Below are positions 4,447-27,207 of a DNA stretch of 27,207 nt, in pieces. Below the pieces are notes generated by a model. It did not search any database and was not told the DNA's origin. It was given only the letters and a program-made list of their open reading frames with translations. The position numbers and the translations under genes were made by a program. Source of the stretch: a virus (Duplodnaviria > Heunggongvirae > Uroviricota > Caudoviricetes); IMG/VR virus record IMGVR_UViG_2619619134_000016; one strand, given 5' to 3'. Position 1 is the first letter of the stretch, and every line of letters starts with the position of its first letter.

Positions 4447-4619
4447 AAACCCACTGGATTATTTTTATGAAAGAGGCATCCAGTGAGTAGATTCGTAAGG
4501 TTACAGATACGTATATCTGAATAATTAAATTCAGTTCTGTAAATAAAACTTAATCCTTAACCGGATGGATTTCTGCACCCTCAGAACATCAGGAGGCCGC
4601 CCGAAAGGGCGGTAGTGAA

Positions 4620-8132: not shown

Positions 8133-8155
8133 AGATTTCTCCTTTTAAAAAAGCA

Positions 8156-8183
8156 CTATCGGCATGCACAAAAAAATCTTTAA
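8156..8183 (-). promoter_or_regulatory. Sigma-28 (FliA) class promoter for flxA: TAAA, 15 nt, GCCGATAG on the minus strand
   Basis: Reverse complement of 8156..8182 reads TAAAGATTTTTTTGTGCATGCCGATAG, matching the TAAA-N15-GCCGATAA consensus in 7 of 8 positions of the -10 element, about 25 nt upstream of the flxA start. Confidence 0.7.
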
Positions 8184-8334
8184 TCGTATTTCTTGTGTCA
8201 TTAATTGTTTGATGTTCAGATTGTTTTCCTCGCGGGCTGGCGCGCCTCAGAAAGTAAAGCTTGTTGACAGGGGTAAACGTTCGGCAATAATTTTCTGCCG
8301 CATGCGGGTGTTGCATAAAACGTGTTACGTTCCT

Positions 8335-8640
8335 TTATCGACAGGTCAGGTCACCGCTCACCCGCCGACGAGAAAGCAACACTGACATGCTAAAGCAAAA
8401 AATAGATGAATAAGTTGAGTTGTGCATATGTAGCCTGACCGTCACAAAGTATATGGTGTCTGTACCAGTAAGATGATGGCCGGACTCTTTAAAAACGAGC
8501 TGACCTGCACAATACAGGATGGACTTAGCAATGGCTGCTCCTGGCACAAAGCGGACAGTGATCACCGTTCTTACGACTACTTTCTGACTTCCTTCGTGAC
8601 TTGCCCTAAGCATGTTGTAGTGCGATACTTGTAATGACAT
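8335..8640 (-). CDS. ydfV: Hypothetical prophage protein, 101 aa
   Basis: 101-aa ORF between flxA and relB, matching the size and position of ydfV in Qin. Its 5' end overlaps the relBE promoter region, so start and expression are uncertain. Confidence 0.5.
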   Translation of the reverse strand: MSLQVSHYNMLRASHEGSQKVVVRTVITVRFVPGAAIAKSILYCAGQLVFKESGHHLTGTDTIYFVTVRLHMHNSTYSSIFCFSMSVLLSRRRVSGDLTCR

Positions 8641-8653
8641 TTGTAATTACAAG
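8601..8653 (+). promoter_or_regulatory. relBE promoter and operator: -35 TTGCCC (8601..8606), -10 GATACT (8624..8629), operator repeats CTTGTAATGACATTTGTAATTACAAG (8628..8653)
   Basis: TTGTAAT/ATTACAA inverted-repeat operator read directly upstream of relB; consistent with RelB/RelE autoregulation at relO. Confidence 0.65.
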
Positions 8654-8664
8654 AGGTGTAAGAC

Positions 8665-8904
8665 ATGGGTAGCATTAACCTGCGTATTGACGATGAACTT
8701 AAAGCGCGTTCTTACGCCGCGCTTGAAAAAATGGGTGTAACTCCTTCTGAAGCGCTTCGTCTCATGCTCGAGTATATCGCTGACAATGAACGCTTGCCGT
8801 TCAAACAGACACTCCTGAGTGATGAAGATGCTGAACTTGTGGAGATAGTGAAAGAACGGCTTCGTAATCCTAAGCCAGTACGTGTGACGCTGGATGAACT
8901 CTGA
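8665..8904 (+). CDS. relB: RelB antitoxin, 79 aa
   Basis: Product MGSINLRIDDELKARSYAALEKMGVTPSEALRLMLEYIADNERLPFKQTLLSDEDAELVEIVKERLRNPKPVRVTLDEL matches RelB as I recall it; stop overlaps the relE start (TGATG). Confidence 0.9.
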   Translation: MGSINLRIDDELKARSYAALEKMGVTPSEALRLMLEYIADNERLPFKQTLLSDEDAELVEIVKERLRNPKPVRVTLDEL

Positions 8905-9191
8905 TGGCGTATTTTCTGGATTTTGACGAGCGGGCACTAAAGGAATGGCGAAAGCTGGGCTCGACGGTACGTGAACAGTTGAAAAAGAAGCTGGTTGAAG
9001 TACTTGAGTCACCCCGGATTGAAGCAAACAAGCTCCGTGGTATGCCTGATTGTTACAAGATTAAGCTCCGGTCTTCAGGCTATCGCCTTGTATACCAGGT
9101 TATAGACGAGAAAGTTGTCGTTTTCGTGATTTCTGTTGGGAAAAGAGAACGCTCGGAAGTATATAGCGAGGCGGTCAAACGCATTCTCTGA
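8904..9191 (+). CDS. relE: RelE toxin (ribosome-dependent mRNA endonuclease), 95 aa
   Basis: Product MAYFLDFDERALKEWRKLGSTVREQLKKKLVEVLESPRIEANKLRGMPDCYKIKLRSSGYRLVYQVIDEKVVVFVISVGKRERSEVYSEAVKRIL matches RelE. Confidence 0.9.
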   Translation: MAYFLDFDERALKEWRKLGSTVREQLKKKLVEVLESPRIEANKLRGMPDCYKIKLRSSGYRLVYQVIDEKVVVFVISVGKRERSEVYSEAVKRIL

Positions 9192-9262
9192 ACCAAAGCA
9201 TGACATCTCTGTTTCGCACCGAAGGTGACACTTCTGCTTTGCGTTGACAGGAGAAGCAGGCT

Positions 9263-9418
9263 ATGAAGCAGCAAAAGGCGATGTTAATCGCCCTGATCGT
9301 CATCTGTTTAACCGTCATAGTGACGGCACTGGTAACGAGGAAAGACCTCTGCGAGGTACGAATCCGAACCGGCCAGACGGAGGTCGCTGTCTTCACAGCT
9401 TACGAACCTGAGGAGTAA
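9263..9418 (+). CDS. hokD: Hok-family membrane toxin HokD (RelF), 51 aa
   Basis: Hand translation from ATG 9263 to TAA 9416..9418 gives MKQQKAMLIALIVICLTVIVTALVTRKDLCEVRIRTGQTEVAVFTAYEPEE; below the track cutoff. Confidence 0.85.
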   Translation: MKQQKAMLIALIVICLTVIVTALVTRKDLCEVRIRTGQTEVAVFTAYEPEE

Positions 9419-9486
9419 GAGACCCGGCGGGGGAGAAATCCCTCGCCACCTCTGATGTGGCAGGCATCCTCAACGCACCCGCACTT

Positions 9487-9510
9487 AACCCGCTTCGGCG
9501 GGTTTTTGTT
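9487..9510 (+). terminator. Rho-independent terminator after the relB-relE-hokD operon
   Basis: GC-rich hairpin ACCCGC-TTCG-GCGGGT followed by a T-run. Confidence 0.6.
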
Positions 9511-9634
9511 TTTATTTTCAACGCGTTTGAAGTTCTGGACGGTGCCGGAATAGAATCAAAAATACTTAAGTAGCGCGCAGGGATAAGAGGGATGGTCCCT
9601 TAAAGGGGAGAGCTAATTATCCGGAAGGATTCTG

Positions 9635-9886
9635 ATGATGAACATCGAAGAACTGCGTAAAATTTTTTGTGAAGATGGCCTCTATGCTGTGTGCGTTGAA
9701 AATGGAAATCTTGTTAGTCATTACCGCATTATGTGTTTGCGAAAGAATGGGGCTGCGTTAATTAATTTTGTGGATGCTCGGGTCACGGACGGATTTATCT
9801 TGCGCGAAGGTGAGTTTGTCACTTCATTACAGGCATTGAAAGAGATCGGAATAAAAGCTGGCTTTTCTGCTTTTTCAGGAGAATAA
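9635..9886 (+). CDS. rem: Rem, small prophage protein, 83 aa
   Basis: 83-aa ORF immediately downstream of hokD, matching rem by size and position. Confidence 0.6.
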   Translation: MMNIEELRKIFCEDGLYAVCVENGNLVSHYRIMCLRKNGAALINFVDARVTDGFILREGEFVTSLQALKEIGIKAGFSAFSGE

Positions 9887-9952
9887 ACTCATCTACAATC
9901 TTGCGCGGGGCTGAACTCCCGCTGAGTAACACCGTGCCACCGGAGAAAACCG

Positions 9953-10231
9953 ATGGCACGCAACGCAAAATATTACAATTCTGATAATTCGCCCGTTCTT
10001 GCCTGCACGCACGGGCGGTATTCTCACGCATTCAAGTCTGAATGGTTCCAGCACCCTCCATGCACTGCAGAACAGGCCGAATGGCTGATTCATTCTTACC
10101 GCAGGCGCGGGTTCGAGGTTAAGAAAGCTCTCAGTCTCGACTATCGGCACTGGATAATCTCTGTCAGGCTGCCTTATTCCGAACGCCCACCACGTGCGTC
10201 CCGCACTTTCCAGCAACGGATCTGGAGGTAA
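9953..10231 (+). CDS. Hypothetical protein, 92 aa
   Basis: ATG at 9953 preceded by a GGAGAA Shine-Dalgarno; ends 2 nt before the ydfU start, suggesting co-transcription. Confidence 0.4.
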   Translation: MARNAKYYNSDNSPVLACTHGRYSHAFKSEWFQHPPCTAEQAEWLIHSYRRRGFEVKKALSLDYRHWIISVRLPYSERPPRASRTFQQRIWR

Positions 10232-10232
10232 C

Positions 10233-11282
10233 GTGCGGGTATTACTTAGACCTGTTCTGGTGCCTGAGCTTGGGCTGGTGGTCCTTAAGCCGGGCCGTGA
10301 ATCCATACAGATATTTCATAATCCTCGAGTGCTGGTGGAACCGGAACCAAAAAGCATGCGTAATCTGCCATCCGGAGTCGTTCCTGCCGTTCGCCAGCCG
10401 CTGGCGGAAGACAAAACATTGCTGCCGTTTTTTAGTAACGAACGGGTGATTCGTGCTGCTGGCGGCGTTGGCGCATTGTCCGACTGGCTATTACGTCATG
10501 TTACATCCTGCCAGTGGCCTAATGGCGATTACCATCACACTGAAACAGTCATTCACCGTTATGGTACCGGCGCAATGGTGTTGTGCTGGCACTGCGACAA
10601 CCAACTGCGTGACCAGACATCGGAATCACTGGAGCTGCTTGCTCAACAAAATCTGACAGCATGGGTGATTGACGTCATCCGTCACGCAATAAGCGGTACG
10701 CAGGAGCGGGAATTATCTTTGGCTGAATTATCCTGGTGGGCGGTCTGCAATCAGGTGGTGGATGCACTACCTGAGGCTGTATCGCGTCGTTCGCTGGGAT
10801 TACCAGCGGAAAAAATCTGCTCGGTGTACCGCGAAAGCGACATCGTACCGGGAGAGCAGACCGCCACCAGCATATTGAAACAACGCACAAAAAATCTTGC
10901 ACCGTTGCCTTACGCCCACCAGCAACAAAAATCACCACAGGAAAAGACGGTGGTAAGCATCACCGTTGATCCAGAGTCTCCGGAATCTTTCATGAAGCTG
11001 CCTAAACGTCGCCGCTGGGTTAAGGAGAAATACACACGTTGGGTTAAGACACAGCCGTGTGCTTGCTGCGGTATGCCAGCCGACGATTCGCATCATCTGA
11101 TTGGTCACGGGCAGGGCGGAATGGGAACAAAAGCACATGATCTCTTTGTGTTGCCTTTGTGCAGAAAGCATCACAACGAGCTGCATACGGATACAGTGGC
11201 ATTTGAAGATAAGTATGGCTCCCAACTGGAGCTGATATTTCGTTTTATCGATCGCGCGCTGGCAATTGGCGTACTGGCGTAA
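10233..11282 (+). CDS. ydfU: YdfU-like protein with C-terminal Cys/His (HNH-like) motif, 349 aa from GTG 10233
   Basis: Track ORF is 362 aa from an upstream GTG; a start at GTG 10233 gives 349 aa, the size I recall for YdfU. C-terminus carries CACCGMPADDSHHLIGHG...CRKHHNELH, an HNH/zinc-finger-like pattern. Confidence 0.6.
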   Translation: MRVLLRPVLVPELGLVVLKPGRESIQIFHNPRVLVEPEPKSMRNLPSGVVPAVRQPLAEDKTLLPFFSNERVIRAAGGVGALSDWLLRHVTSCQWPNGDYHHTETVIHRYGTGAMVLCWHCDNQLRDQTSESLELLAQQNLTAWVIDVIRHAISGTQERELSLAELSWWAVCNQVVDALPEAVSRRSLGLPAEKICSVYRESDIVPGEQTATSILKQRTKNLAPLPYAHQQQKSPQEKTVVSITVDPESPESFMKLPKRRRWVKEKYTRWVKTQPCACCGMPADDSHHLIGHGQGGMGTKAHDLFVLPLCRKHHNELHTDTVAFEDKYGSQLELIFRFIDRALAIGVLA

Positions 11283-11295
11283 GTGGAGAACGAGC

Positions 11296-12048
11296 ATGAA
11301 CCTTGAAGCCTTACCAAAATATTACTCCCCAAAATCTCCAAAATTGAGCGATGACGCTCCAGCGACAGGCACCGGTTGTTTAACAATTACGGATGTAATG
11401 GCAGCGCAGGGGATGGTGCAGTCGAAAGCACCACTTGGGTTGGCCTTATTTCTGGCAAAAGTTGGTGTTCAGGACCCTCAGTTTGCGATTGAAGGCCTGC
11501 TAAATTACGCGATGGCACTGGATAACCCGACATTGAACAAATTGAGTGAAGAAATCCGGTTACAGATTATTCCTTACCTCGTGAGTTTTGCATTTGCTGA
11601 TTACTCCAGGTCTGCGGCAAGTAAGGCTCGCTGTGAGCATTGTTCAGGTACGGGATTTTATAATGTATTGCGCGAAGTGGTGAAACACTACAGACGCGGG
11701 GAATCTGTAATCAAGGAAGAATGGGTGAAGGAACTATGTCAGCATTGCCATGGTAAGGGCGAAGCCAGCACAGCGTGCAGAGGGTGTAAGGGTAAAGGGA
11801 TTGTTCTGGATGAAAAAAGAACCCGGTTTCATGGCGTACCGGTATATAAGATTTGTGGGCGTTGTAATGGAAACCGGTTTAGTCGTTTACCGACCACGCT
11901 GGCACGACGTCATGTCCAGAAGCTGGTACCAGACCTGACCGATTATCAGTGGTATAAGGGGTATGCGGACGTCATTGGTAAACTGGTAACAAAGTGCTGG
12001 CAGGAAGAAGCATACGCGGAAGCGCAATTGAGGAAGGTGACGAGATAA
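11296..12048 (+). CDS. quuQ: Late-gene antiterminator Q, 250 aa from ATG 11296
   Basis: Cys-rich region (CEHCSGTG...CQHCHGKG...CRGCKGKG) typical of Q-family zinc-binding antiterminators; position just upstream of the lysis/late region; 250 aa matches QuuQ. Confidence 0.7.
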   Translation: MNLEALPKYYSPKSPKLSDDAPATGTGCLTITDVMAAQGMVQSKAPLGLALFLAKVGVQDPQFAIEGLLNYAMALDNPTLNKLSEEIRLQIIPYLVSFAFADYSRSAASKARCEHCSGTGFYNVLREVVKHYRRGESVIKEEWVKELCQHCHGKGEASTACRGCKGKGIVLDEKRTRFHGVPVYKICGRCNGNRFSRLPTTLARRHVQKLVPDLTDYQWYKGYADVIGKLVTKCWQEEAYAEAQLRKVTR

Positions 12049-12154
12049 ATGATTTTTGCTGAAGATGGCGACATGATGTTTGCATTTTTCAAAAAATATG
12101 GATAAAATTTTTTCAACGATGGGCTTTGTATACCCGACGTTAAGAAAAAGTAGA

Positions 12155-12178
12155 AAACCCGCTGATGAGCGGGTTTTG
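12155..12178 (+). terminator. Rho-independent terminator downstream of Q; candidate tR' of the late operon
   Basis: Hairpin CCCGCT-GATG-AGCGGG followed by a T-run, about 110 nt after the Q stop. Confidence 0.55.
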
Positions 12179-12469
12179 TGCTTTAAATGGGGCAATGGTA
12201 ATGTTGAATCTCATCCCGGGACTCATGTCTGTTAACTTATTATTTAGCTGGTGACTTGGTTATTTGCCTGATGTTTAAAATGTTTTCTTCCAGTACAATG
12301 TCCCTAAACACAATGAGTCTGCTTATTATATTATTAGCAGAGCTATTACGGCCAAAGTACAGCATAAGATTTTAAAGCCAATCAACCAGTCATCAAGACA
12401 GACGGAGTTATTCATAAAAACTCTCCATGTGTGATCCGATGGGGCCTGAAATTAAAGCTTTAATATAGC

Positions 12470-12670
12470 TCATGAAAGGTAAACATTGGCAGCTGAAGGG
12501 CCACGCAGACCATTTATCCGGTAAAATTCCACGCGTAATCCGGTGGTAATTTCTTCTGCATCGCGGAGATTGAGCGCTGAAACATGAAGCTGGACATCGA
12601 TACGACCATCGGATGGGGTGATAAGACCCTTGCCGCTTTTGCCGTCAAAGTTTTTGACAATTCCTGTCAT
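12470..12670 (-). CDS. cspF: Cold-shock-domain protein, 66 aa
   Basis: Product [66 protein letters not shown] is a CspA-family fold; divergent partner of cspB as in Qin. An in-frame stop lies 5 codons upstream of the ATG, so the product is 66 aa. Confidence 0.7.
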
Positions 12671-12980
12671 TTTAGGGGACAGAAAAACTCCTTAATACTG
12701 ATAACCTGGTGCACCATACACACGTTCCTGGAGAAAACTACTTTTTTGATAGGATTGAAGGTGGCTGGATGTCTAAAATAAACATTGCTTCATATGTTCA
12801 ACTATGAGTTAATGACTGCGTCGGTTTGAAGAACAGACGATATACGAAGTAGTTTACTAAAGCAGTTCTCATTTCAGGTGTTATTCACTTATTCCTTCTT
12901 TGAGTCTCTCCAATTAAGTACGAAGTCGTTTCTGTTATGCAAACCATTTATGCCGAAAGGCTCAAGTTAAGGAATGTAGA

Positions 12981-13196
12981 ATGTCAAATAAAATGACTGG
13001 TTTAGTAAAATGGTTTAACGCTGATAAAGGTTTCGGCTTTATTTCTCCTGTTGATGGTAGTAAAGATGTGTTTGTGCATTTTTCTGCGATTCAGAATGAT
13101 AATTATCGAACCTTATTTGAAGGTCAAAAGGTTACCTTCTCTATAGAGAGTGGTGCTAAAGGTCCTGCAGCAGTAAATGTCATCATTACTGATTAA
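12981..13196 (+). CDS. cspB: Cold-shock protein CspB, 71 aa
   Basis: [71 protein letters not shown]; CspA family with RNP motifs; long 5' leader typical of cold-shock genes. Confidence 0.85.
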
Positions 13197-13477
13197 AATT
13201 CATCGCTCGTCTGTATACGATAACGAAGAAGGCTGATGCCTGAGTAGAGATACGGACAGAGTAGTGAATATTGGATCTCTTTAATAAAAAGTAAGGAGGT
13301 CCAATACATGAAACAATGGCCAGCATATTTGGCAAAATCTTAATCAGGAAAAGTATGCTAACCATTGTGGTGAAGTGCAGGTTTGCTGCATGAATAGTTT
13401 CACAGCAGAAGCTAACTGCTGGCATCGCAAAACAAAGTGCGTAAGTGGATGACTCCCACAAAAAGCACCACAATCTC

Positions 13478-13502
13478 AAACCCGCTCAGGCGGGTTTTTT
13501 AT
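13478..13502 (+). terminator. Hairpin plus T-run terminator
   Basis: AAACCCGC-TCAG-GCGGGTTT followed by TTTTTT. Confidence 0.5.
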
Positions 13503-13559
13503 TATCTGCTTTAAATATATTATTAAAATATAAAAAATACTTGTTACTAATAAAATCAA

Positions 13560-13730
13560 TCAGGCTACAGCTTTAAGATTTGTCTGGAATACTTTGTTGC
13601 AATGAGGGCAGATCAAAAGGGCACCTTTTTGTACTCTTGAAAAACTGTGTTCTGACTCTTGGGTGCAGTTTGGGCAGGAACATTTAACGAGATAATTACG
13701 GCGTGATTTTGAGTCTTTACGTTCTGACAT
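13560..13730 (-). CDS. Small zinc-ribbon protein, 56 aa (CxxC...CxxC); possibly the YnfU small protein
   Basis: Internal ATG at 13730..13728 with an AGGAAA Shine-Dalgarno gives MSERKDSKSRRNYLVKCSCPNCTQESEHSFSRVQKGALLICPHCNKVFQTNLKAVA; two Cys pairs form a zinc-ribbon signature. Confidence 0.45.
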   Translation of the reverse strand: MSERKDSKSRRNYLVKCSCPNCTQESEHSFSRVQKGALLICPHCNKVFQTNLKAVA

Positions 13731-13949
13731 AGGCTTTTCCTGTATAAATGGCCGTATACAGTACACTAAATATGAAAACATTTCTCGTATTATTATTTTA
13801 TATATGACTTTCTTTCAAAATAATTACCCACATTTTTAATGTGTATGTTTTTTTAGCGCCGTTGAGAACAACGTGTGCTGTCAAAACTACCCCGTAGACT
13901 CCGATCTTTTCAAACATATTGCACCATCCGTGTACATCGGGGTGAGGAT

Positions 13950-14165
13950 ATGAAATCAATGGATAAGTTAACAACAGGTGTTGCCTATGGCACATCGGCG
14001 GGTAATGCTGGTTTCTGGGCATTGCAGTTACTCGATAAAGTAACTCCGTCACAGTGGGCTGCAATCGGTGTGCTGGGTAGCCTGGTTTTTGGCCTGCTGA
14101 CGTATCTGACAAATCTTTATTTCAAGATTAAAGAAGACAGGCGTAAGGCTGCGAGAGGAGAGTAA
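13950..14165 (+). CDS. essQ: Holin (class II/pinholin-like), 71 aa
   Basis: ATG at 13950 after a GGTGAGGA Shine-Dalgarno; product has two hydrophobic segments and a charged C-terminus; first gene of the lysis cassette. Confidence 0.75.
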
Positions 14166-14169
14166 TCCA

Positions 14170-14477
14170 ATGACTCAAGACTATGAACTGGTTGTGAAAG
14201 GAGTCCGTAATTTTGAGAATAAAGTTACGGTAACTGTAGCCTTACAGGACAAGGAACGCTTTGACGGTGAAATTTTTGACCTGGATGTCGCCATGGACCG
14301 TGTTGAAGGAGCTGCGCTGGAGTTTTATGAGGCAGCAGCCAGAAGGAGCGTCCGGCAAGTCTTCCTGGAAGTAGCAGAAAAATTGTCAGAAAAAGTTGAG
14401 TCTTATCTGCAGCATCAGTACTCCTTTAAGATTGAAAATCCTGCCAATAAGCACGAGCGTCCTCATCATAAATATAT

Positions 14478-14481
<4 letters not shown>
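14170..14481 (+). CDS. ydfR: Hypothetical lysis-cassette protein, 103 aa
   Basis: 103-aa ORF between holin and lysozyme; matches ydfR by size and position. Confidence 0.6.
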
Positions 14482-15505
<1,024 letters not shown>

Positions 15506-15866
15506 GGTAATATTAAATCGGAACATTTACATCGCGGAATGTAAAATTTAAATAAAAAGGACTCTTCCATGAGCCAAAATTCCTGAAATCTTAAGGGTAA
15601 GATAAAAGGTCTTAATCAGAATGACACGTTTTATTAATAAATAAAGCTATTCTTTCATTGCTGTGTTTTTCTTTACAAAAGTAATCCTTGCTATGGGTGG
15701 TTAATCATGCGTTAATGGTGTTCTGGTTTGTTACAAATTTATCTGAAGCAGTCATTGTTATAATTTTATTATTTGTACCTCTTGAGATTTCCTTGTTGGT
15801 TTTTCTCTCTGATATTTTTTTCGGACCATTCTGCCCAAGGGCTAATTTCTTCAAAAGGTAATAATT

Positions 15867-16079
15867 ATGTCTAACAAAATGACTGGTTTAGTGAAATGGT
15901 TTAACCCTGAAAAAGGTTTTGGTTTCATCACGCCGAAAGATGGCAGCAAAGATGTGTTTGTCCATTTCTCAGCAATTCAGAGCAACGATTTCAAAACATT
16001 AACTGAGAATCAGGAAGTTGAATTTGGTATTGAGAACGGACCTAAAGGTCCTGCCGCTGTTCATGTAGTGGCGCTTTGA
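15867..16079 (+). CDS. cspI: Cold-shock protein CspI, 70 aa
   Basis: [70 protein letters not shown]; CspA family. Confidence 0.85.
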
Positions 16080-16284
16080 GGTAGACAATATTACAAACCA
16101 TATTCACTTTAGATGCCCGTGTTGTCATGGTTCCCAGTATAGAACATCATCTTTTGATGTTTCTGACATGAATCCTTTCGGGGCAAAATGTATCTTTTGT
16201 AAATCAATGATGATTACATTTGATAATATTTCACAATACTTAAATGCCAGCCGTCTGTCGTTGGATTTAAAAAAGTGAAAATGA

Positions 16285-16308
16285 AGGCTCCTTCGGGAGC
16301 TTTTTTGC
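16285..16308 (+). terminator. Rho-independent terminator downstream of cspI
   Basis: Hairpin GCTCC-TTCG-GGAGC followed by TTTTTT. Confidence 0.6.
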
Positions 16309-16350
16309 TTGGTGTCTATTCGATGGATACTCACATACTACGGTAACATC

Positions 16351-16581
16351 ATGAAAAAAATCATAGTTTTTTTTAACTCTGAACCAGCAGTGGTAGTGCC
16401 AGCGATGACTGGAGTTAACACCATCATGCGTGAATATCCAAATGGCGAAAAAACACACCTTACTGTAATGGCCGCAGGGTTTCCATCTCTGACCGGAGAT
16501 CATAAAGTCATTTATGTAGCCGCGGATCGACATGTTACTTCAGAAGAAATTCTGGAAGCAGCAATAAGGCTCTTGAGTTGA
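16351..16581 (+). CDS. Hypothetical protein, 76 aa from ATG 16351
   Basis: Track ORF only; weak ribosome-binding site; starts right after a terminator. Confidence 0.25.
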   Translation: MKKIIVFFNSEPAVVVPAMTGVNTIMREYPNGEKTHLTVMAAGFPSLTGDHKVIYVAADRHVTSEEILEAAIRLLS

Positions 16582-16752
16582 TTTGATGCTATTGCATTGA
16601 TAATTCAGGAAAATTCTCTTTGTCTGTTTGTGTAAAATTTAGACTATCGTATGTTGATTATTGCGATGTTTCATCTTATCTTTTAAACGTTTGCACCATA
16701 TAATCGACTTACTGTGTAACTGGAAAGTCATAACAGACTAAAAGAGGAAATG

Positions 16753-16926
16753 ATGAATATTGAAAACTTAAAAACAAAAGCAGAAGCAGATATTTCTGAA
16801 TATATAACAAAAAAAATTATTGAACTTAAGAAAAAGACCGGGAAAGAAGTTACCAGTATTCAGTTTACCGCACGGGAAAAAATGACGGGTCTTGAAAGCT
16901 ATGATGTCAAGATTAATTTAATCTGA
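16753..16926 (+). CDS. gnsB: GnsB, small protein, 57 aa
   Basis: Hand translation from ATG 16753 gives MNIENLKTKAEADISEYITKKIIELKKKTGKEVTSIQFTAREKMTGLESYDVKINLI; AAGAGGAAA Shine-Dalgarno upstream; matches GnsB as I recall it. Confidence 0.75.
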   Translation: MNIENLKTKAEADISEYITKKIIELKKKTGKEVTSIQFTAREKMTGLESYDVKINLI

Positions 16927-17077
16927 TGTATTCAATAATAAAATTTATCCATAAACCTCGTTTTTACGGGGTTTTGTTATATTTGAATGGTTCCGAATAT
17001 CTAAATCACAATTGTTGATGGTTTTTATTAAACCAATGCAGTCCGGCTCAGGAGTGAAAGAAGCCGGACGTTATGGT

Positions 17078-17488
17078 TTAGCGTGGTAAGATCTGTGTAG
17101 TTTTCTGGATGCTTTCAGTAAATGGTAATGAATTATCAAAGGTATAGTAATATCTTTTTTGTTCGTGGATATTTGTAACCCACCGAAAAACTCCTGCTTT
17201 AGCAAGGTTTCTTCTGTATTCCTGAAATGTGATCTCTCTGGATTTCAGCTTATTAGAGGTCGTTTCTATAAGATGCCTATCCTTTGAAAATTTGACAGAC
17301 ACAATGTTTTTTAGGCCCTTTAATAACACTGTATTATCATTTTTTAATACAATATGAACATTCTCTGTGGCTAAATAGTAAATGTAATGTGAGACATTGT
17401 GACGTTTTAGCTCAGAATAAAACCATTGATAGTTTAAATCGTTTCGAACTTTATCAAATATTTGTTTAAAAATGACTACCTGATCCAT
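17078..17488 (-). CDS. ydfO: YdfO-like protein, 136 aa from internal ATG 17488
   Basis: Track ORF is 141 aa; the second ATG has a GGAAGG Shine-Dalgarno and gives 136 aa, the size I recall for YdfO; position next to nohQ. Confidence 0.6.
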
Positions 17489-17545
17489 AGATAAACCTTC
17501 CATGTGATATGAGGGGGCGTAGTCTGCACGATTATCTAAATTGCT

Positions 17546-17779
17546 TCAATCTGGTCTGACCTGTTTTCTGAGCAATTCAGTAATGTCACTCTTTTCTTTG
17601 TTTGCTTCAGAAGAAACTCTTTTTTCTGAGCACAGTCTCCGGCGGCAGGCTTCAATGACCCAGGCTGAGAAATTCCCGGACCCTTTTTGCTCAAGAGCGA
17701 TGTTAATTTGTTCAATCATTTGGTTAGGAAAGCGGATGTTGCGGGTTGTTGTTCTGCGGGTTCTGTTCTTCGTTGACAT
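17546..17779 (-). CDS. ynfO: Small basic protein, 77 aa, possible ribbon-helix-helix regulator
   Basis: 77-aa ORF adjacent to ydfO; size and position match ynfO. Confidence 0.5.
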   Translation of the reverse strand: MSTKNRTRRTTTRNIRFPNQMIEQINIALEQKGSGNFSAWVIEACRRRLCSEKRVSSEANKEKSDITELLRKQVRPD

Positions 17780-17939
17780 GAGGTTGTCCCGTATTCAGTG
17801 TCGCTGATTTGTATTGTCTGAAGTTGTTTTTACGTTAAGTTGATGCAGATCAATTAATACGATATCTGCGTCATAATTGATTATTTGACGTGGTTTGATT
17901 GCGTAGATGCACGTTGTGACATGCAGATGATAATTATTA

Positions 17940-18160
17940 TCATTTTGCGGGTCCTTTCCGGCGATCCGACAGGTTACGGGGCGGCGACCTCGCGGGTTTT
18001 CGCTATTTATGAAAATTTTCCGGTTTAAGGCGTTTCCGTTCTTCTTCGTTGTAACTTAATGTTTTTATTTAAAATACCCCCTGAAAAGAAAGGAAACGAC
18101 AGGTGCTGAAAACGAGCTTTTGGGCCTCTGTCGTTTCCTTTCTCTGTTTTTGGCCGTGGA
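17940..18160 (+). other. Lambda-type cos packaging site: cosN 12-nt cohesive-end sequence GGGCGGCGACCT at 17979..17990, with flanking cosQ and cosB-like sequence upstream of Nu1
   Basis: 17941..18100 reads ...GCGATCCGACAGGTTACG GGGCGGCGACCT CGCGGGTTTTCGCTATTTATGAAAATTTTCCGGTTTAAGGCG..., which I recognise as the joined right and left ends of the phage lambda genome. Confidence 0.85.
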
Positions 18161-18167
18161 ATGAACA

Positions 18168-18713
18168 ATGGAAGTCAACAAAAAGCAGCTGGCTGACATT
18201 TTCGGTGCGAGTATCCGTACCATTCAGAACTGGCAGGAACAGGGAATGCCCGTTCTGCGAGGCGGTGGCAAGGGTAATGAGGTGCTTTATGACTCTGCCG
18301 CCGTTATAAGATGGTATGCCGAAAGGGATGCTGAAATTGAGAACGAAAAGCTGCGCCGGGAAGTTGAAGAACTGCGGCAGGCCAGCGAGGCAGATCTCCA
18401 GCCAGGGACTATTGAGTACGAACGCCATCGACTTACGCGTGCGCAGGCCGACGCACAGGAACTGAAGAATGCCAGAGACTCCGCTGAAGTGGTGGAAACC
18501 GCATTCTGTACTTTCGTGCTGTCGCGGATCGCAGGTGAAATTGCCAGTATTCTCGACGGGATCCCCCTGTCGGTGCAGCGGCGTTTTCCGGAACTGGAAA
18601 ACCGACATGTTGATTTCCTGAAACGGGATATCATCAAAGCCATGAACAAAGCAGCCGCGCTGGATGAACTGATACCGGGGTTGCTGAGTGAATATATCGA
18701 ACAGTCAGGTTAA
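18168..18713 (+). CDS. nohQ: Terminase small subunit Nu1, 181 aa
   Basis: MEVNKKQLADIFGASIRTIQNWQEQGMPVLRGGGKGNEVLYDSAAVIRWYAERDAEIEN... matches lambda Nu1 as I recall it; overlaps the start of gene A as in lambda. Confidence 0.85.
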   Translation: MEVNKKQLADIFGASIRTIQNWQEQGMPVLRGGGKGNEVLYDSAAVIRWYAERDAEIENEKLRREVEELRQASEADLQPGTIEYERHRLTRAQADAQELKNARDSAEVVETAFCTFVLSRIAGEIASILDGIPLSVQRRFPELENRHVDFLKRDIIKAMNKAAALDELIPGLLSEYIEQSG

Positions 18714-20394
18714 CAGGCTGCGGCATTTTGTCCGCGCCGGGCTTCGCTCACTGTTCCGGCCGGAGCCACAGACCGCCGTTGAATGGGCGGATGCCAATTA
18801 CTATCTCCCGAAAGAATCCGCATACCAGGAAGGGCGCTGGGAAACACTGCCCTTTCAGCGGGCCATCATGAATGCGATGGGCAGTGACTACGTCCGCGAG
18901 GTGAATGTGGTGAAGTCTGCCCGTGTTGGTTATTCCAAAATGCTGCTGGGTGTTTATGCCTACTTCATAGAGCATAAGCAGCGCAACACCCTTATCTGGT
19001 TGCCGACGGATGGTGATGCCGAGAACTTTATGAAAACCCACGTTGAGCCGACCATCCGCGATATTCCGTCGCTGCTGGCGCTGGCTCCGTGGTATGGCAA
19101 AAAGCACCGGGATAACACGCTCACCATGAAGCGTTTTTCCAATGGTCGTGGCTTCTGGTGCCTGGGCGGTAAAGCGGCAAAAAACTACCGTGAAAAGTCG
19201 GTGGATGTGGCGGGTTATGATGAACTTGCTGCCTTTGATGAGGATATTGAACAGGAAGGCTCTCCGACGTTCCTGGGCGATAAGCGTATTGAAGGCTCGG
19301 TCTGGCCAAAGTCCATCCGTGGCTCCACGCCCAAAGTGAGAGGCACCTGTCAGATTGAGCGTGCAGCCAGTGAATCCCCGCATTTTATGCGTTTTCATGT
19401 TGCCTGCCCGCACTGCGGGGAGGAGCAGTACCTTAAATTTGGCGATAAAGAGACGCCGTTTGGCCTCAAATGGACGCCGGATGACCCCTCCAGCGTGTTT
19501 TATCTCTGCGAACATAACGCCTGCGTCATCCGTCAGCAGGAGCTGGACTTCACTGATGCCCGTTATATCTGCGAAAAGACCGGGATCTGGACCCGTGATG
19601 GCATTCTCTGGTTTTCGTCATCCGGTGAAGAGATTGAACCGCCTGACAGCGTGACCTTTCACATCTGGACGGCGTACAGCCCGTTCACCACCTGGGTGCA
19701 GATTGTCAAAGACTGGATGAAGACGAAAGGGGATACGGGAAAACGTAAAACCTTCGTGAACACCACGCTCGGTGAGACGTGGGAGGCGAAAATTGGCGAA
19801 CGTCCGGATGCTGAAGTGATGGCAGAGCGGAAAGAGCATTATTCAGCGCCCGTTCCTGACCGTGTGGCTTACCTGACCGCCGGTATCGACTCCCAGCTGG
19901 ATCGCTACGAAATGCGCGTATGGGGATGGGGGCCGGGTGAGGAAAGCTGGCTGATTGACCGGCAGATTATTATGGGTCGCCACGACGATGAACAGACGCT
20001 GCTGCGTGTGGATGAGGCCATCAATAAAACCTATACCCGCCGGAATGGTGCAGAAATGTCGGTATCCCGTATCTGCTGGGATACTGGCGGGATTGACCCT
20101 ACCATTGTGTATGAACGCTCGAAAAAACATGGGCTGTTCCGGGTGATCCCCATTAAAGGGGCATCCGTCTACGGTAAGCCGGTGGCCAGCATGCCACGTA
20201 AGCGAAACAAAAACGGGGTTTACCTTACCGAAATCGGTACGGATACCGCGAAAGAGCAGATTTATAACCGCTTCACACTGACGCCGGAAGGGGATGAACC
20301 GCTTCCCGGTGCCGTTCACTTCCCGAATAACCCGGACACAGAACACGGCAGCCGCGAAGAAGTCAGCCGGCGATGCCGGCACATCAGCCCGTGA
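18688..20394 (+). pseudogene. Terminase large subunit A, 3'-truncated: about 550 codons of lambda-like gpA, then out-of-frame stf-derived codons to a stop
   Basis: Product matches lambda gpA from MNISNSQVNRLRHFVRAG... to ...[11 protein letters not shown], then diverges into 18 unrelated codons ([18 protein letters not shown]). Intact lambda gpA is about 641 aa. Confidence 0.8.
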
Positions 20395-23326
20395 GGCGGC
20401 AACCCATGCGACTGATGCTGCAGGCTCAGCACGCGCAGCCAGCACGTCAGCCGGACAGGCCGCGTCGTCGGCTCAGTCAGCGTCTTCCAGCGCAGGAACG
20501 GCATCAACAAAGGCCAGTGAAGCATCGAAAAGTGCTGCTGCTGCAGAGTCCTCAAAAAGCGCGGCAGCTACCAGTGCCAGTGCCGCGAAAACGTCAGAAA
20601 CGAATGCCGCAGCGTCACAACAATCAGCAGCCACTTCTGCATCCACCGCGACCACGAAAGCGTCAGAAGCTGCCACCTCAGCCCGGGATGCGGCGGCCTC
20701 AAAAGAGGCAGCGAAATCATCAGAAACGAACGCATCCTCGAGCGCCAGTAGCGCAACTTCCTCGGCAACGGCGGCAGGAAATTCCGCGAAGGCGGCAAAA
20801 ACGTCCGAGACGAACGCCAGGTCTTCTGAGACGGCAGTGGGACAGAGCGCCTCAGCTGCGGCAGGCTCAAAAACAGCGGCTGCATCATCTGCCAGCGCCG
20901 CGTCAACAAGTGCCGGGCAGGCCTCAGCCAGTGCCACCGCCGCCGGAAAATCGGCAGAAAGCGCCGCATCATCCGCTTCAACAGCCACAACGAAGGCTGG
21001 CGAAGCCACTGAACAGGCCAGCGCAGCAGCGAGTTCTGCTTCCGCAGCGAAGACATCCGAAACGAACGCGAAAGCGTCGGAAACCAGCGCAGAATCCTCA
21101 AAAACGGCTGCCGCATCGTCAGCCAGTTCGGCGGCGTCATCGGCATCATCGGCGTCTGCTTCAAAAGATGAGGCGACCAGACAGGCGTCAGCAGCGAAGG
21201 GCAGCGCCACGACAGCATCCACGAAGGCGACAGAGGCAGCTGGCAGTGCGACGGCGGCAGCACAGAGCAAAAGTACGGCGGAATCCGCGGCAACACGCGC
21301 CGAGACAGCGGCAAAACGGGCAGAGGATATTGCATCCGCCGTGGCGCTTGAGGATGCGAGCACGACGAAAAAGGGGATAGTACAGCTCAGCAGTGCGACT
21401 AACAGTACGTCTGAAACGCTGGCGGCAACGCCAAAGGCAGTAAAATCAGCCTATGACAATGCAGAGAAACGTCTGCAGAAAGACCAGAACGGCGCTGATA
21501 TACCCGATAAGGGACGCTTCCTGAACAACATTAACGCGGTCAGTAAAACAGACTTTGCTGATAAGCGTGGTATGCGTTATGTGCGGGTTAACGCTCCTGC
21601 AGGTGCAACATCTGGAAAATATTACCCTGTTGTTGTTATGCGTTCTGCTGGCTCAGTAAGCGAACTGGCATCAAGGGTCATTATCACCACGGCAACGCGA
21701 ACCGCAGGCGATCCGATGAATAACTGCGAGTTTAACGGATTTGTTATGCCTGGTGGCTGGACTGACAGGGGGCGTTATGCTTATGGAATGTTCTGGCAAT
21801 ATCAAAACAATGAACGAGCCATCCACTCAATAATGATGAGTAATAAGGGCGATGATTTGCGCTCTGTGTTCTATGTTGATGGCGCTGCTTTCCCTGTTTT
21901 TGCGTTTATCGAAGATGGCCTGTCAATATCCGCACCTGGTGCTGATCTCGTTGTTAATGATACGACCTATAAGTTTGGGGCAACAAATCCAGCGACTGAA
22001 TGTATCGCGGCGGACGTTATCCTTGATTTTAAGAGTGGGCGTGGTTTTTATGAGTCTCATTCGTTAATCGTTAACGATAATTTGTCGTGCAAAAAACTTT
22101 TTGCCACAGACGAAATTGTAGCGCGTGGTGGTAATCAGATTCGAATGATAGGTGGGGAGTATGGTGCATTATGGCGTAATGATGGCGCTAAAACTTACCT
22201 GCTGCTTACCAATCAAGGTGATGTTTATGGTGGCTGGAATACATTAAGACCGTTTGCTATTGATAACGCAACCGGCGAACTGGTTATTGGAACCAAACTG
22301 TCCGCAAGTCTGAACGGTAATGCATTAACAGCAACAAAGCTGCAAACGCCAAGACTGGTTTCTGGTGTTGAGTTTGATGGTTCCAGAGATATTACTTTAA
22401 CCGCCGCGCATGTGGCTGCTTTTGCCAGAAGGGCAACGGATACATATGCCGATGCGGATGGTGGCGTTCCCTGGAATGCCGAATCAGGTGCTTACAATGT
22501 CACCCGCTCTGGCGACAGCTATATTCTGGTTAACTTCTATACCGGAGTCGGAAGTTGCCGGACCCTGCAGATGAAGGCGCATTACAGAAATGGTGGTCTG
22601 TTCTACCGTTCTTCAAGAGACGGTTATGGTTTTGAGGAAGACTGGGCAGAAGTTTATACCTCGAAAAATCTTCCACCAGAAAGCTACCCAGTCGGCGCAC
22701 CAATCCCGTGGCCATCAGATACCGTTCCGTCTGGTTATGCCCTGATGCAGGGGCAGACTTTTGACAAATCTGCTTACCCGAAACTTGCAGCCGCTTATCC
22801 GTCAGGCGTGATCCCTGATATGCGTGGCTGGACGATTAAGGGCAAACCTGCCAGTGGTCGGGCCGTATTGTCTCAGGAACAGGACGGCATTAAATCGCAT
22901 ACCCACAGCGCCAGCGCATCCAGTACGGATTTGGGGACGAAAACCACATCGTCGTTTGATTACGGCACTAAATCCACGAATAACACCGGGGCGCATACCC
23001 ATAGTGTTAGCGGTACGGCTGCTTCAGCCGGTGCACATACCCATTCGATGACATTTGTTTCAGGTGGTTCCAGTGGTGCTCCGGGAAGTGGAGCATCTGA
23101 TTATTCTAAATACAGTGTTAACACTTCTTCTGCAGGCGCTCATACGCACTCTGTATCGGGTACTGCTGCAAGCGCAGGTGCACACGCACATACTGTGGGT
23201 ATTGGTGCTCATACGCACTCCGTTGCGATTGGTTCACATGGACACACCATCACCGTTAACGCTGCTGGTAACGCGGAAAACACCGTCAAAAACATCGCAT
23301 TTAACTATATTGTGAGGCTTGCATAA
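20294..23326 (+). CDS. stfQ: Side tail fibre Stf, 5'-truncated remnant; 1010-aa open frame whose first ~14 codons are out-of-frame terminase sequence
   Basis: From about codon 15 the product matches the lambda Stf pattern (Ala/Ser/Thr-rich repeats ...AAKTSETNA..., then ...[36 protein letters not shown]..., and a C-terminal His-rich GAHTHS/GAHAHT repeat tip ending [11 protein letters not shown]). Whether the fortuitous ATG at 20294 is used is unknown. Confidence 0.75.
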
Positions 23327-23901
23327 TGGTATTCAGAATGAGTGAACAACCACGGACCATAACAATTTATAATCTGCTGGCCGGAACTAATGAATTTATT
23401 GGTGAAGGTGATGCATATATTCCGCCTCATACAGGTCTGCCAGCAAACAGTACCGATATTGCACCGCCAGATATTCCGGCAGGCTTCGTGGCTGTTTTCA
23501 ACAGTGATGAGGCATCGTGGCATCTCGTTGAAGATCATCGGGGTAAAACGGTTTATGACGTGGCTTCCGGCGACGCGTTATTTATTTCTGAACTCGGTCC
23601 GTTACCGGAAAATGTTACCTGGTTATCGCCGGAAGGGGAGTTTCAGAAGTGGAACGGTACAGTCTGGGTGAAGGATACGGAAGCAGAAAAACTGTTCCGG
23701 ATCCGGGAGGCGGAAGAAACAAAAAACAGCCTGATGCAGGTAGCCAGTGAGCATATAGCGCCACTTCAGGATGCTGTAGATCTGGAAATCGCAACGGAGG
23801 AAGAAACCTCATTGCTGGAAGCCTGGAAAAAGTATCGGGTGTTGCTGAACCGTGTTGATACATCAACTGCACAGGATATTGAATGGCCAGCACTGCCGTA
23901 G
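23326..23901 (+). CDS. tfaQ: Tail fibre assembly protein Tfa, 191 aa
   Basis: Start overlaps the stf stop (TAATG); 191 aa; follows stf as in lambda and Qin. Confidence 0.8.
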
Positions 23902-23998
23902 GGTAAAACATATAAATTCTATAATTAGATGTATCTTTCCATTTACGGCAAGGAAGGGGGCTTGGAAGACGTAAAGCATCTCACACCGAGATTATTTT

Positions 23999-24589
23999 TT
24001 ATATGTCAGGTGTCTGAAGTTTTGCTTTGGCTCTTAAAATGGTTTGCCGCGAGGTTTTGAATTCCCGGGCAATGGCACTTATACTTACACCTGACTTAAT
24101 TCGTTCGAATACCACCTGTTTCTGTTCTTCATTTAACACAGGTGGTCGACCAAAACGTTTCCCTGCGCCGCGGGCTCTTACTATCCCGGAATGAGTGCGT
24201 TCAAGTAAAAGGTCTCGTTCAAATTCAGCGACTGCTGAAATTACGTGCATCATCATTTTTCCTGTTGGACTGGTCAGGTCAATGCCCCCCAATGCTAAGC
24301 AATGCACTCTGATACCTGTTTCGGTCAGTTGTTCCACTGTTTTCCTGATATCCATTGCATTACAACCAAGGCGATCCAGTTTTGTCACAATCAATTGATC
24401 ACCACATTTCAGGCGAGCAAGCAACCGGTTAAAACCAGGACGCTCACTGGTTGCTGCTGAGCCACTAATGTGTTCTTCGATTATTTGCTGAGGTTTGATT
24501 TTAAAACCTGCACTTTCGATTTCCCGGCGTTGATTTTCGGTGGTCTGATCCAGCGTTGATATCCGACAGTAAGCAAAAATTTGAGACAT
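23999..24589 (-). CDS. pinQ: Serine site-specific DNA invertase (Pin/Hin/Gin family), 196 aa
   Basis: N-terminal catalytic motif (YCRISTLDQ), resolvase/invertase core and C-terminal HTH; 196 aa; next to tfa. Confidence 0.85.
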
Positions 24590-24905
24590 AGTGAGACTCT
24601 ATACGAAATTGGTGTTCATATCATAATGCATCTCAGAAAATAATTATGATTATTTTTGTGCATATTTGTATGTACACGTTCGAAAATAAACGAATGCGTA
24701 TGCAACCCCGTAATTTTGGTGAGACCCAAAATCGATTTTGTGAAAAATGGCTTTAACTCGGTTTGTTTTTCGAGTTCCGGGCGGACTCAAGGAAGAAGAA
24801 TAGTGTTGCGTGTTATTTTAACCAGATTTCAAGTTGTTTGGTCGTGGAAAAGTGGAGCAAAATGTTGTTAAAGTGGAAAAATGATAAAAAAGTAAGTTTA
24901 TTATA

Positions 24906-25139
24906 TTACATTTTACCATTTAAATTTTGGTTGTCTTTAAGAACTGATATCGCTGTTTGTAATAATTCTTTGTTATCCAGCCATGATTTTTTCTTTATGT
25001 TTCCTTCAATGTAATCAAGCAATGTTCTGGTATTGATAGGTCTTCCCTGTTTTGCTACTTCCACTACAGCATCCCCTAGGATAATTCTTACTTCAGGAAG
25101 CTGCGCAGGGAACCACTTTAGGGTGTCTTTTGATTTCAT
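24906..25139 (-). CDS. ydfK: YdfK-like small protein, 77 aa from internal ATG 25139
   Basis: Track ORF is 88 aa; the second ATG gives 77 aa, the size I recall for YdfK; last prophage gene before the host junction. Confidence 0.55.
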   Translation of the reverse strand: MKSKDTLKWFPAQLPEVRIILGDAVVEVAKQGRPINTRTLLDYIEGNIKKKSWLDNKELLQTAISVLKDNQNLNGKM

Positions 25140-25923
25140 GAAGATATTCCTTAAAATATTATTGATTTTCATTGCGATATTGTATGTCTGATTCAGGATA
25201 TGTTGACTTATACATCGGTTTTGCCTGGGTTATTGGATATGCCAATCCCTAATTTTATTAGGGCATGACTAAAAATGCTGAATATGATAAGGAGAGATGT
25301 GATTATCAGTATGCTGTTCATATAACCTCGAATTAGTAATGTGTTATATATGATATAGTTGACAATTTTTATCTTGGGTGTTCTTAAAGTTCGTAGATAA
25401 ACATTGTCGTTTCAGGTATACAGGAATGCTAACAGGTGGCAGCAAAAATCAGGCGGTTTATGGCGCAAGCTGAAGCGGCAACTGCAAACTATCTTATGCA
25501 GAGACTCTACACGGATTGGGTTTAAAAGTATACATAGATAACAGTTTTTATCTGAAGAAGAAAAATATCAAGGTGATATAGCCTATATGCCTATGATGCG
25601 GAGGAATGAATGTGATGGGAGTGATGTATCTGAATAGTTGAAAAACCGCAGTCACGTCGTATGCAAGAACGTGCTGCGGTTGGCTGGTAAATTTTTCGAT
25701 AGTGCGAGTATTGAATGATTTCCAGCCGTTATTGATTTTACGCGTAAATCCATGAAAAAACTACTTATCTGTTGGGGAGTTTTTTGGGGCATATATGGGA
25801 CAGAAATAGGCCCCAGATAGACACTGAGATCGAACTTAGGATGCTTTTAAAAAAATGCAACTATCTGAAAAAACCTAGAAAACGCCAAGGAAACCACAGG
25901 ATGGGAAAAAACACCTGTGAATT

Positions 25924-27207
25924 ATGGATTTCCAGTTATATTCGCTCGGCGCAGCGTTAGTGTTTCATGAAATATTTTTTCCTGAATCATCAACGGCAAT
26001 GGCGTTAATTTTGGCAATGGGAACCTACGGTGCAGGTTATGTGGCGCGTATTGTCGGAGCATTTATTTTCGGCAAAATGGGCGACAGAATAGGGCGTAAA
26101 AAAGTGCTCTTTATTACCATCACCATGATGGGGATCTGTACCACCTTAATTGGTGTGTTACCGACCTATGCACAGATTGGTGTTTTTGCCCCCATCTTGC
26201 TGGTGACGCTGCGTATTATTCAGGGATTGGGTGCAGGTGCGGAAATTTCCGGTGCCGGTACGATGCTGGCGGAATATGCGCCAAAAGGTAAGCGCGGAAT
26301 TATCTCCTCATTTGTAGCTATGGGAACTAACTGCGGAACCTTGAGCGCAACGGCAATCTGGGCCTTTATGTTCTTCATTCTCAGTAAAGAGGAACTGCTG
26401 GCGTGGGGATGGCGTATACCGTTCCTGGCGAGCGTTGTCGTGATGGTCTTTGCTATCTGGTTACGTATGAATCTGAAAGAAAGCCCGGTCTTTGAGAAGG
26501 TTAATGACAGTAACCAACCGACAGCAAAACCTGCACCTGCTGGTAGCATGTTCCAGAGCAAATCCTTCTGGCTGGCAACAGGGCTGCGTTTTGGTCAGGC
26601 GGGTAACTCCGGTTTAATTCAGACTTTCCTTGCAGGCTATTTAGTGCAGACGTTATTGTTTAACAAAGCAATTCCAACAGATGCATTGATGATTAGTTCG
26701 ATTCTCGGCTTTATGACCATTCCGTTCCTTGGTTGGTTATCCGATAAAATTGGTCGCCGGATCCCGTATATTATTATGAATACCTCCGCGATTGTGCTGG
26801 CATGGCCAATGCTTTCTATCATCGTAGATAAAAGCTATGCCCCGAGCACCATTATGGTTGCACTGATTGTGATTCATAACTGTGCGGTGCTGGGATTATT
26901 TGCTCTGGAAAACATTACCATGGCAGAAATGTTCGGCTGTAAAAACCGCTTTACCCGGATGGCTATTTCTAAAGAAATTGGTGGTCTTATTGCTTCCGGT
27001 TTTGGTCCTATCCTGGCGGGTATTTTCTGCACCATGACGGAATCCTGGTATCCGATCGCCATTATGATCATGGCATATTCAGTGATTGGTTTAATCTCTG
27101 CGCTGAAAATGCCAGAGGTGAAAGACCGTGATTTAAGTGCGCTGGAAGACGCTGCGGAAGATCAACCGCGTGTTGTAAGAGCTGCGCAACCTTCCAGAAG
27201 TCTGTAA
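25924..27207 (+). pseudogene. ydfJ: MFS transporter, 5'-truncated host gene (ydfJ-like) at the prophage/chromosome junction
   Basis: 427-aa ORF runs to a natural stop at the window end; MFS motif A (GKMGDRIGRKK) sits at residue ~50 instead of ~80-90, and an in-frame TGA lies 2 codons upstream of the first ATG, so roughly 30-40 N-terminal residues are missing. Confidence 0.7.

Follow-up and report, generated by a model that had tools for sequence, protein, structure and literature searches.

Can a lambda-type cos site that lies in a prophage remnant devoid of head genes still give that remnant a way of moving between hosts? The question is raised by a stretch of 27,207 nucleotides deposited as IMG/VR virus record IMGVR_UViG_2619619134_000016, the whole of which we call the window. 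An earlier note on this DNA had recognized a lambda-like cosN upstream of the terminase genes and had suggested that a superinfecting or co-resident lambdoid helper phage could package the remnant in the manner of a cosmid. Based on comparisons of the window with lambda, with deposited phage genomes and with complete Escherichia coli (E. coli) genomes, we put the probability at roughly 85% that the site is a genuine lambda-family cos of the Qin type, which survives as a passive relic and would act as a substrate for helper terminase, as the starting point of abortive, one-ended packaging and, likely, as an entry point for recombination.

Anatomy of the cos region

When the 27-kb window was searched, the 12-mer GGGCGGCGACCT was found as a single exact copy on the + strand (17979-17990), for which the chance expectation in 27 kb, counting both strands, is ~0.003 copies. 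Two further matches elsewhere in the window, each with two mismatches, are at the level expected by chance (1.18 in shuffled sequence). The ~560 bp flanking cosN align without a gap, and with 19 substitutions, to the joined lambda ends, which we took from the DE3 copy of lambda. A chance occurrence of the 12-mer was therefore discarded, given that the exact copy is embedded in 560 bp of gap-free lambda homology. In this alignment, window positions equal 17978 plus the lambda coordinate up to lambda bp 138, and 17977 plus the lambda coordinate thereafter. We note in passing that the lambda reference sequence, NC_001416, contains one G more (bp 139, between R2 and R1) than do lambda DE3, the window, K-12 Qin, ET490, PhiR42_1 and Kati, and that coordinates after bp 138 are consequently off by one.

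The functional lambda cos fragment comprises 238 bp (lambda 48446-182), which hold cosQ, cosN and cosB (PMC4856287). Its equivalent in the window (Table 1) roughly coincides with the region from 17940 to 18160 that the earlier note had singled out. The heptamer GGGTCCT, reportedly identified as cosQ in the 2001 study by Wieczorek and Feiss, is the sole RGGNCCY between 17900 and 18200; the same authors are said to have found that substitutions are tolerated in the 17 bp separating cosQ from cosN, and one substitution in the window (lambda 48486) lies between these two elements. As for the other subsites, cosQ is a strongly conserved 7-bp element (PMC4669245), cosN is defined as 16 bp, i.e., 12 bp plus 2 bp on each side (PMC9026076), and I2 (lambda bp 18-50) sets the distance between cosN and cosB (PMC4856287). 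The elements of cosB are arranged in the order R3-I1-R2-R1, with R2 inverted and a common 16-mer in R2 and R1; R3 occupies bp 50-65, of which bp 55-63 are the critical part (PMC9026076).

The flanks of cosN (ACG/GGG...CCT/CG) are the same in the window as in lambda, including the conserved CG dinucleotides at the nick sites. R3 in the window is without the G54A change found in R3 of K-12 Qin, ET490 and phage PhiR42_1, and the lambda segment 74-101, which holds the I1 core, is present exactly at 18052-18079. Every defined subsite (cosQ, cosN, I2, R3, lambda 74-101, R2, and R1) has both the sequence and the spacing of lambda, which led us to reject the idea that the subsites have decayed. The description of a 12-nt cosN with lambda-like flanks was thus borne out, and the alignment to the lambda end-join that the earlier note had proposed as a check gave neither a gap nor a mismatch in the subsites of cosN and cosB. 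By every sequence criterion available to us, the cos is intact, and a helper terminase of lambda specificity should recognize and cut it.

Outside the subsites, the 238-bp equivalent (17922-18159) has 11 substitutions relative to lambda, 10 of which are also found in the deposited phage genomes PhiR42_1 or Kati. The eleventh is a C>T change at lambda bp 72 (window 18050), between R3 and the I1 core, which is absent from the five phage and Qin copies compared, and present in many genomes. Together with the substitution at 18051 (lambda 73), it lies 6-7 bp outside the I1 core. That the change at bp 72 might be private to the window was ruled out, since at least 30 complete E. coli genomes carry all 238 bp at 100% identity. 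Strain 2018-166 carries the identical 238 bp upstream of a near-complete lambda-type gene set (nohA, A, W, portal, protease, D, E, FI, FII, and tail genes, with only the tail genes within the fetched stretch being counted), several members of which are annotated as frameshifted. A similar cos segment occurs in 4,591 of the 5,426 complete E. coli genomes (~85%), at a median of two per genome, and helper phages with the same cos are common. The RefSeq records that we examined leave this site unannotated.

Table 1. Positions of cos subsites, terminase genes, the deletion junction and Chi sites in the window
Feature	Position	Strand	Remarks
Complete cos region (cosQ, cosN, cosB)	17922-18159	+	Equivalent of the 238-bp lambda fragment bp 48446-182; gap-free alignment
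cosQ, packaging-termination signal	17949-17955	+	GGGTCCT; exact; lambda position 48473-48479
cosN	17977-17992	+	GGGCGGCGACCT (17979-17990) plus 2 bp on each side; lambda-identical, single exact match
Predicted nicks in cosN	17978/17979; 17990/17991	top; bottom	
I2 spacer (lambda bp 18-50)	17996-18028	+	33/33 bases as in lambda
cosB R3 (lambda bp 50-65), critical TerS/Nu1 binding site	18028-18043	+	16/16 bases as in lambda
I1 core, IHF site between R3 and R2	18057-18069	-	AATAAAAACATTA; one mismatch relative to WATCAANNNNTTR
cosB R2, inverted	18087-18102	-	AGAAAGGAAACGACAG; exact
cosB R1	18128-18143	+	CTGTCGTTTCCTTTCT; exact
nohA (Nu1, small terminase subunit), intact	18168-18713	+	181 aa; 99% identical to lambda Nu1; Pfam Phage_Nu1, E = 5.6e-101
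A', truncated large terminase subunit	18688-20394	+	Residues 1-550 lambda-like, then 18 out-of-frame residues from stf
Deletion junction	20336-20337		Lambda bp 2359 joined to lambda bp 20011; blastn of the window against NC_001416
Chi sites	4656, 10274, 10331, 14896	+	All to the left of cos, the nearest at 14896
Chi sites	10864, 10916	-	

Terminase genes and the deletion junction

The Nu1 gene directly downstream of cos had been described as intact and proved to be so, since its product departs from lambda Nu1 by just two changes, K48R and L132I, both of them conservative. Residues 1-47, which comprise the recognition helix (17-24) and the wing (31-39), are those of lambda. As the DNA-binding (winged-HTH) domain of Nu1, by which the R sites are read, is identical to that of lambda, the site belongs to the lambda specificity group.

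The large terminase subunit, in contrast to the intact Nu1, is truncated, as had also been claimed. Whereas lambda gpA has 641 residues, gpA' departs from it after residue 550, and there are four conservative changes in the residues up to that point. The Pfam ATPase domain is complete, and the GpA_nuclease match covers profile positions 2-241 of 294. Judged from its sequence, gpA' lacks the coiled-coil and the portal-binding tail described for gpA (PMC9026076). Lacking this tail and the terminal part of the nuclease domain, the resident terminase would be unable to package DNA. At the codon level, A' and lambda A differ by 34 synonymous and 4 nonsynonymous changes, which argues that the divergence of A' arose under purifying selection in functional phages, and would make the decay of A' either recent or refreshed by recombination.

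The truncation of A results from a deletion, visible as a jump in lambda homology from bp 2359 to bp 20011, that has taken away the 3' end of A, every head gene, the genes of the tail shaft, J, lom and the 5' end of stf. W, B, C, Nu3, D, E, FI and FII are absent from the window, and no capsid gene was found among the remaining window ORFs by Pfam/PHROG comparison, such that, within the window, the statement that no head genes remain holds. Survival of cos as a passive relic would follow from the position of this deletion of morphogenetic genes, which began 2.36 kb downstream, inside A. The 2359/20011 junction was not recovered as an uninterrupted match from any of 5,426 complete E. coli genomes, and it is absent from GTDB representative genomes.

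One candidate head gene, YdfO (17078-17503, - strand), was considered on account of the "head protein" label of PHROG 413, and was rejected as a capsid gene because it encodes a DUF1398 homologue of lambda orf p78, lies on the opposite strand, and is not among the lambda head genes. The same "head protein" label is attached to YdfO in some phage records, and looks like an annotation artefact.

Identity of the locus and its variants

On the evidence of sequence identity and gene order, the locus is the Qin cryptic prophage of E. coli, inserted in ydfJ. The segment 7179-18696 is 99.5% identical to K-12 Qin over 11.5 kb, positions 23138-27207 match tfaQ-pinQ-ydfK-ydfJ, and the window is collinear with Qin of ET490, which is the closest complete genome. 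Like K-12 Qin, the window has the ydfJ insertion and the gene order relBE, hokD, cspB/F, lysis genes, cspI, ydfO, ynfO, cos, nohA, stf, tfa and pin, and K-12 Qin has cosN and cosB as in the window. The end of the prophage is near 25,930, i.e., about 8 kb to the right of cos.

The copies of Qin nevertheless differ in their deletion end points, which in lambda coordinates run from bp 719 to stf in K-12, from 2160 to 19458 in ET490, and from 2359 to 20011 in the window. ET490 and the window each keep DNA that the other lacks, and therefore at least two independent deletions must have occurred. Compared with the b1548 region of K-12, in which nohA is truncated at lambda bp 719, the window has full-length Nu1 together with 550 codons of A; in addition, its R3 is of the lambda type as opposed to the G54A type of K-12, and the 200 bp to the left of cosN differ. 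The cos and nohD of DLP12 in K-12 are analogous to the cos and nohA of Qin. No integrase gene is present in the window, the int end of the prophage being situated outside it, and intQ is a pseudogene in K-12.

Packaging polarity and the expected fate of a cut at cos

Packaging begins when TerS, bound at cosB, positions TerL and cosN is nicked; the terminase then keeps the cosB end, and translocation halts only at a downstream cosQ-cosN (PMC9026076, PMC4669245). The cosQ-side end that results from cutting is open to nucleases (PMC4856287). Terminases of the cos type need a second cos for the terminal cut (PMC6687093, PMC4669245), uncut protruding DNA blocks the joining of tails (PMC6687093), and cos phages perform no lateral transduction (PMC12829572). 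A repressed chromosomal segment is packaged in situ by a helper only when it lies between two cos sites, as it does, for example, in tandem dilysogens (PMC4669245).

Given that cosB and Nu1 lie to the right of cosN, packaging from the window cos would run rightward. The DNA on this path consists of nohA, A', stf, tfa, pin, ydfK and ydfJ, followed by the host chromosome; in ET490, it continues through ydfI, dcp, marRAB, the lsr operon and hipB, all within one 48.5-kb headful. We found no second cosN in the 27-kb window, nor in the 55 kb to the left and the 55 kb to the right of the Qin cos in ET490. In the packaging of cosmids, replication yields concatemers in which the cos sites lie one unit apart. 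With a single cos in the window, no other within 55 kb in ET490, and no integrase in the window, the proposal of helper use is best divided into two: recognition and cutting by a terminase of lambda specificity are supported by the sequence of the site, and packaging of the remnant as in a cosmid is not.

The same polarity bears on the markers by which packaging was to be followed. Both cspB (12981-13196) and relBE (8665-9191) are located on the cosQ side, which, by the lambda polarity, is the side left unpackaged. Packaging of either marker would require a rare event that was initiated at another place and terminated at this cos. Because of their location, a negative result with cspB or relBE would not refute the function of cos.

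From the anatomy, orientation and single copy of the site, and from its identity with the cos of full prophages and phages, we infer cutting, abortive packaging and recombination along the following lines. A terminase of lambda specificity, provided in trans by a phage that superinfects or is co-resident, would bind R3, R2 and R1, with IHF at I1, and would nick the two strands of cosN at the predicted positions (Table 1). Having kept the cosB end, it would translocate DNA rightward, first nohA, A', stf, tfa, pin and ydfJ, and then host genes. Without a second cos for termination, the expected products are a cut chromosome and an unterminated, tail-less, one-ended particle, the latter being of the classical "docL" type of lambda and not an infectious particle of the cosmid-like kind. 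Particles of the docL type, which were the subject of work by Sternberg and Weisberg in 1975 and by Sternberg in 1986, reportedly start at the prophage cos and end in bacterial DNA.

Probable recombination at cos

The other end of the break, on the cosQ side, would be free and accessible to RecBCD, and Chi sites in the correct orientation are located 3-13 kb leftward. The window contains six Chi sites (GCTGGTGG), against 0.78 expected from shuffles, and those on the + strand (Table 1) are so oriented that RecBCD coming in from the cosQ end would be expected to recognize them. We consider that the main consequence of cutting would probably be cos-stimulated recombination, with exchange of markers between the late genes of Qin and those of incoming lambdoid phages. 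The cos of DLP12 is a hotspot of recombination with lambda (PMC3945230).

The Qin copies themselves have a mosaic boundary exactly at cosN. To the left of it, K-12 Qin is identical to lambda for 336 bp, whereas the window and ET490 have 13 differences from lambda between 17787 and 17962 (in the compared stretch 17643-18160). To the right of cosN, all Qin copies have common non-lambda variants at 18051, 18080, 18112, 18122 and 18153. This boundary suggests a past exchange with a crossover at cos, and it could also reflect exchanges among free phages that preceded the decay of the prophage.

Comparison with known systems

With the cos of lambda itself, the window cos shares the defined subsites and their spacing, and next to it is a Nu1 that is 99% identical to that of lambda and has the same winged-HTH domain. 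It differs from lambda in being a single chromosomal copy, accompanied by a truncated gpA and no head genes, and in its 11 substitutions outside the subsites. A second comparison is with the cos-type PICIs, such as EcCICFT073, and with cosmids, which resemble the window in that DNA of non-phage or defective nature carries a lambda-like cosN and depends on the terminase and capsids of a helper (PMC6092414). PICIs, however, have their own int for excision and pri for replication into concatemers, a cosB unlike that of the helper, and no phage lysis or tail genes. The window does not have this architecture: its cosB is that of lambda, it has lysis genes, stf and tfa, it contains no int, and we saw no complete replication module.

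A parallel for the use of a repressed chromosomal cos in situ, with polar packaging from cosB, is provided by dilysogens and by lambda doc particles (PMC4669245). In dilysogens, a second cos is available downstream, one genome length away. The Qin locus offers no such substrate, as there is no second co-oriented cos in the window or within 55 kb in ET490, and only an outcome of the doc type is expected.

Alternative explanations

We regard it as very improbable that, by means of the cos, the entire remnant is packaged by a lambdoid helper in the form of a cosmid-like unit, and that Qin thereby has a route of horizontal transfer. Besides the intact cos and the abundance of helper phages with the same site, such a route would draw on the precedent of natural cos islands moved by lambda and phi80, and of small cos replicons packaged as multimers via cos skipping (PMC6092414), as well as on the CII-like and O-like ORFs that the window keeps and K-12 is missing. 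It requires, however, either excision and concatemer-forming replication or a second cos at headful distance, and in the islands transfer was abolished in an int mutant and greatly reduced in a pri mutant (PMC6092414). In our case the cos is single, no integrase is found in the window, intQ is a pseudogene in K-12, and the O-like ORF is not followed by a helicase-loader gene; moreover, in K-12 infected with lambda, De Paepe et al. did not detect that Qin was excised (PMC3945230). A second possibility, that one-sided packaging of the docL type moves ydfJ, marRAB, the lsr operon and genes up to hipB between strains at an appreciable frequency, in what would be the counterpart of lateral transduction in a cos phage, is unlikely. 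The cos does point into the host flank, with the prophage end only ~8 kb off, and the classical docL particles, as reported by Sternberg and Weisberg (1975) and Sternberg (1986), speak for it. Without a terminal cos, however, the DNA would stay uncut, and protruding DNA prevents the attachment of tails (PMC6687093); cos phages are said to perform no lateral transduction (PMC12829572), and the site is a passive one, without amplification by in situ replication.

The site might also be an inert fossil that flanking substitutions or the chromosomal context have disabled even for a helper terminase, which we think distinctly unlikely. The 11 substitutions in 238 bp, among them those at lambda 72/73 beside I1 and at 48486 between cosQ and cosN, would be in keeping with such a loss, and, with its own terminase broken, no selection on the site is expected. 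Pointing the same way, Murialdo is said to have found in 1988 that killing of recA/recB cells by terminase required the addition of a chromosomal cos, although K-12 already has the cos sites of DLP12 and Qin; if so, cryptic cos sites may be poor substrates in vivo. Yet every experimentally defined subsite is that of lambda, the same variants are found in deposited phage genomes and beside a near-complete set of morphogenetic genes, and IHF is dispensable for plaque formation by lambda, with a yield of ~30% (PMC4856287). Scarcely credible, in our opinion, is the idea that cos and nohA have been kept by selection for a benefit to the host, e.g., as a decoy by which incoming terminase is titrated, or as a suicide cut site by which lambdoid infection is aborted. 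Nu1 is fully intact, and cos is kept across Qin variants with differing deletion end points (K-12, ET490, and the window), but these variants were chosen by their similarity to the query, so that the retention reflects a sampling bias. Furthermore, recent descent from functional phages such as PhiR42_1, or exchange with them, accounts for the small number of nonsynonymous changes in A', and nohA itself is truncated in K-12. No defence phenotype is known for cos together with nohA. It is likewise highly unlikely that Qin remnants keep cos and Nu1 through active use, be it that cutting by the terminase of incoming lambda-specificity phages seeds one-sided transfer of ydfJ-marRAB-lsr-hipBA between strains, or that the site is a selected recombination entry or decoy with an influence on how lambdoid infections end.

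We therefore favour a passive relic that a helper terminase would cut with an abortive outcome. The feature is a canonical lambda cos in a well-known cryptic prophage, and as such represents known and commonplace biology. The cos alone gives the remnant no route of transfer, and has little import beyond annotation. Its annotation would, however, make it easier to interpret how infecting lambdoid phages recombine with cryptic prophages, and how chromosomes break in the course of such infections.

Additional features of the prophage

The deposited genome of phage PhiR42_1 (48.7 kb) is 99.2% identical to window positions 14501-20336 over 5.8 kb, a stretch that comprises rzpQ, a cspI-like gene, ynfN, gnsB, a ydfO-like gene, cos, Nu1 and A. 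This match to the late region of PhiR42_1 means that accessory genes assigned to "K-12 cryptic prophages" circulate in complete phage genomes. The PhiR phages are presumably viable, as their GenBank records are of complete genomes with a stated propagation host.

Positions 2074-4357 hold a CII-like ORF (2074-2595), a Ren-like/DUF977 ORF and a fragment of a DNA methyltransferase, all of them absent from K-12 Qin. Also absent from K-12 Qin is a full-length ORF for an O-like replication initiator (2522-3541; PHROG 391, E = 6e-91), after which we saw no helicase-loader gene in the window. Lastly, the segment 6023-7363, in the early region of the prophage, contains an intact transposase ORF of 446 aa (HTH and rve_3), whose counterpart in ET490 is truncated and is annotated as a transposase of the ISNCY family.
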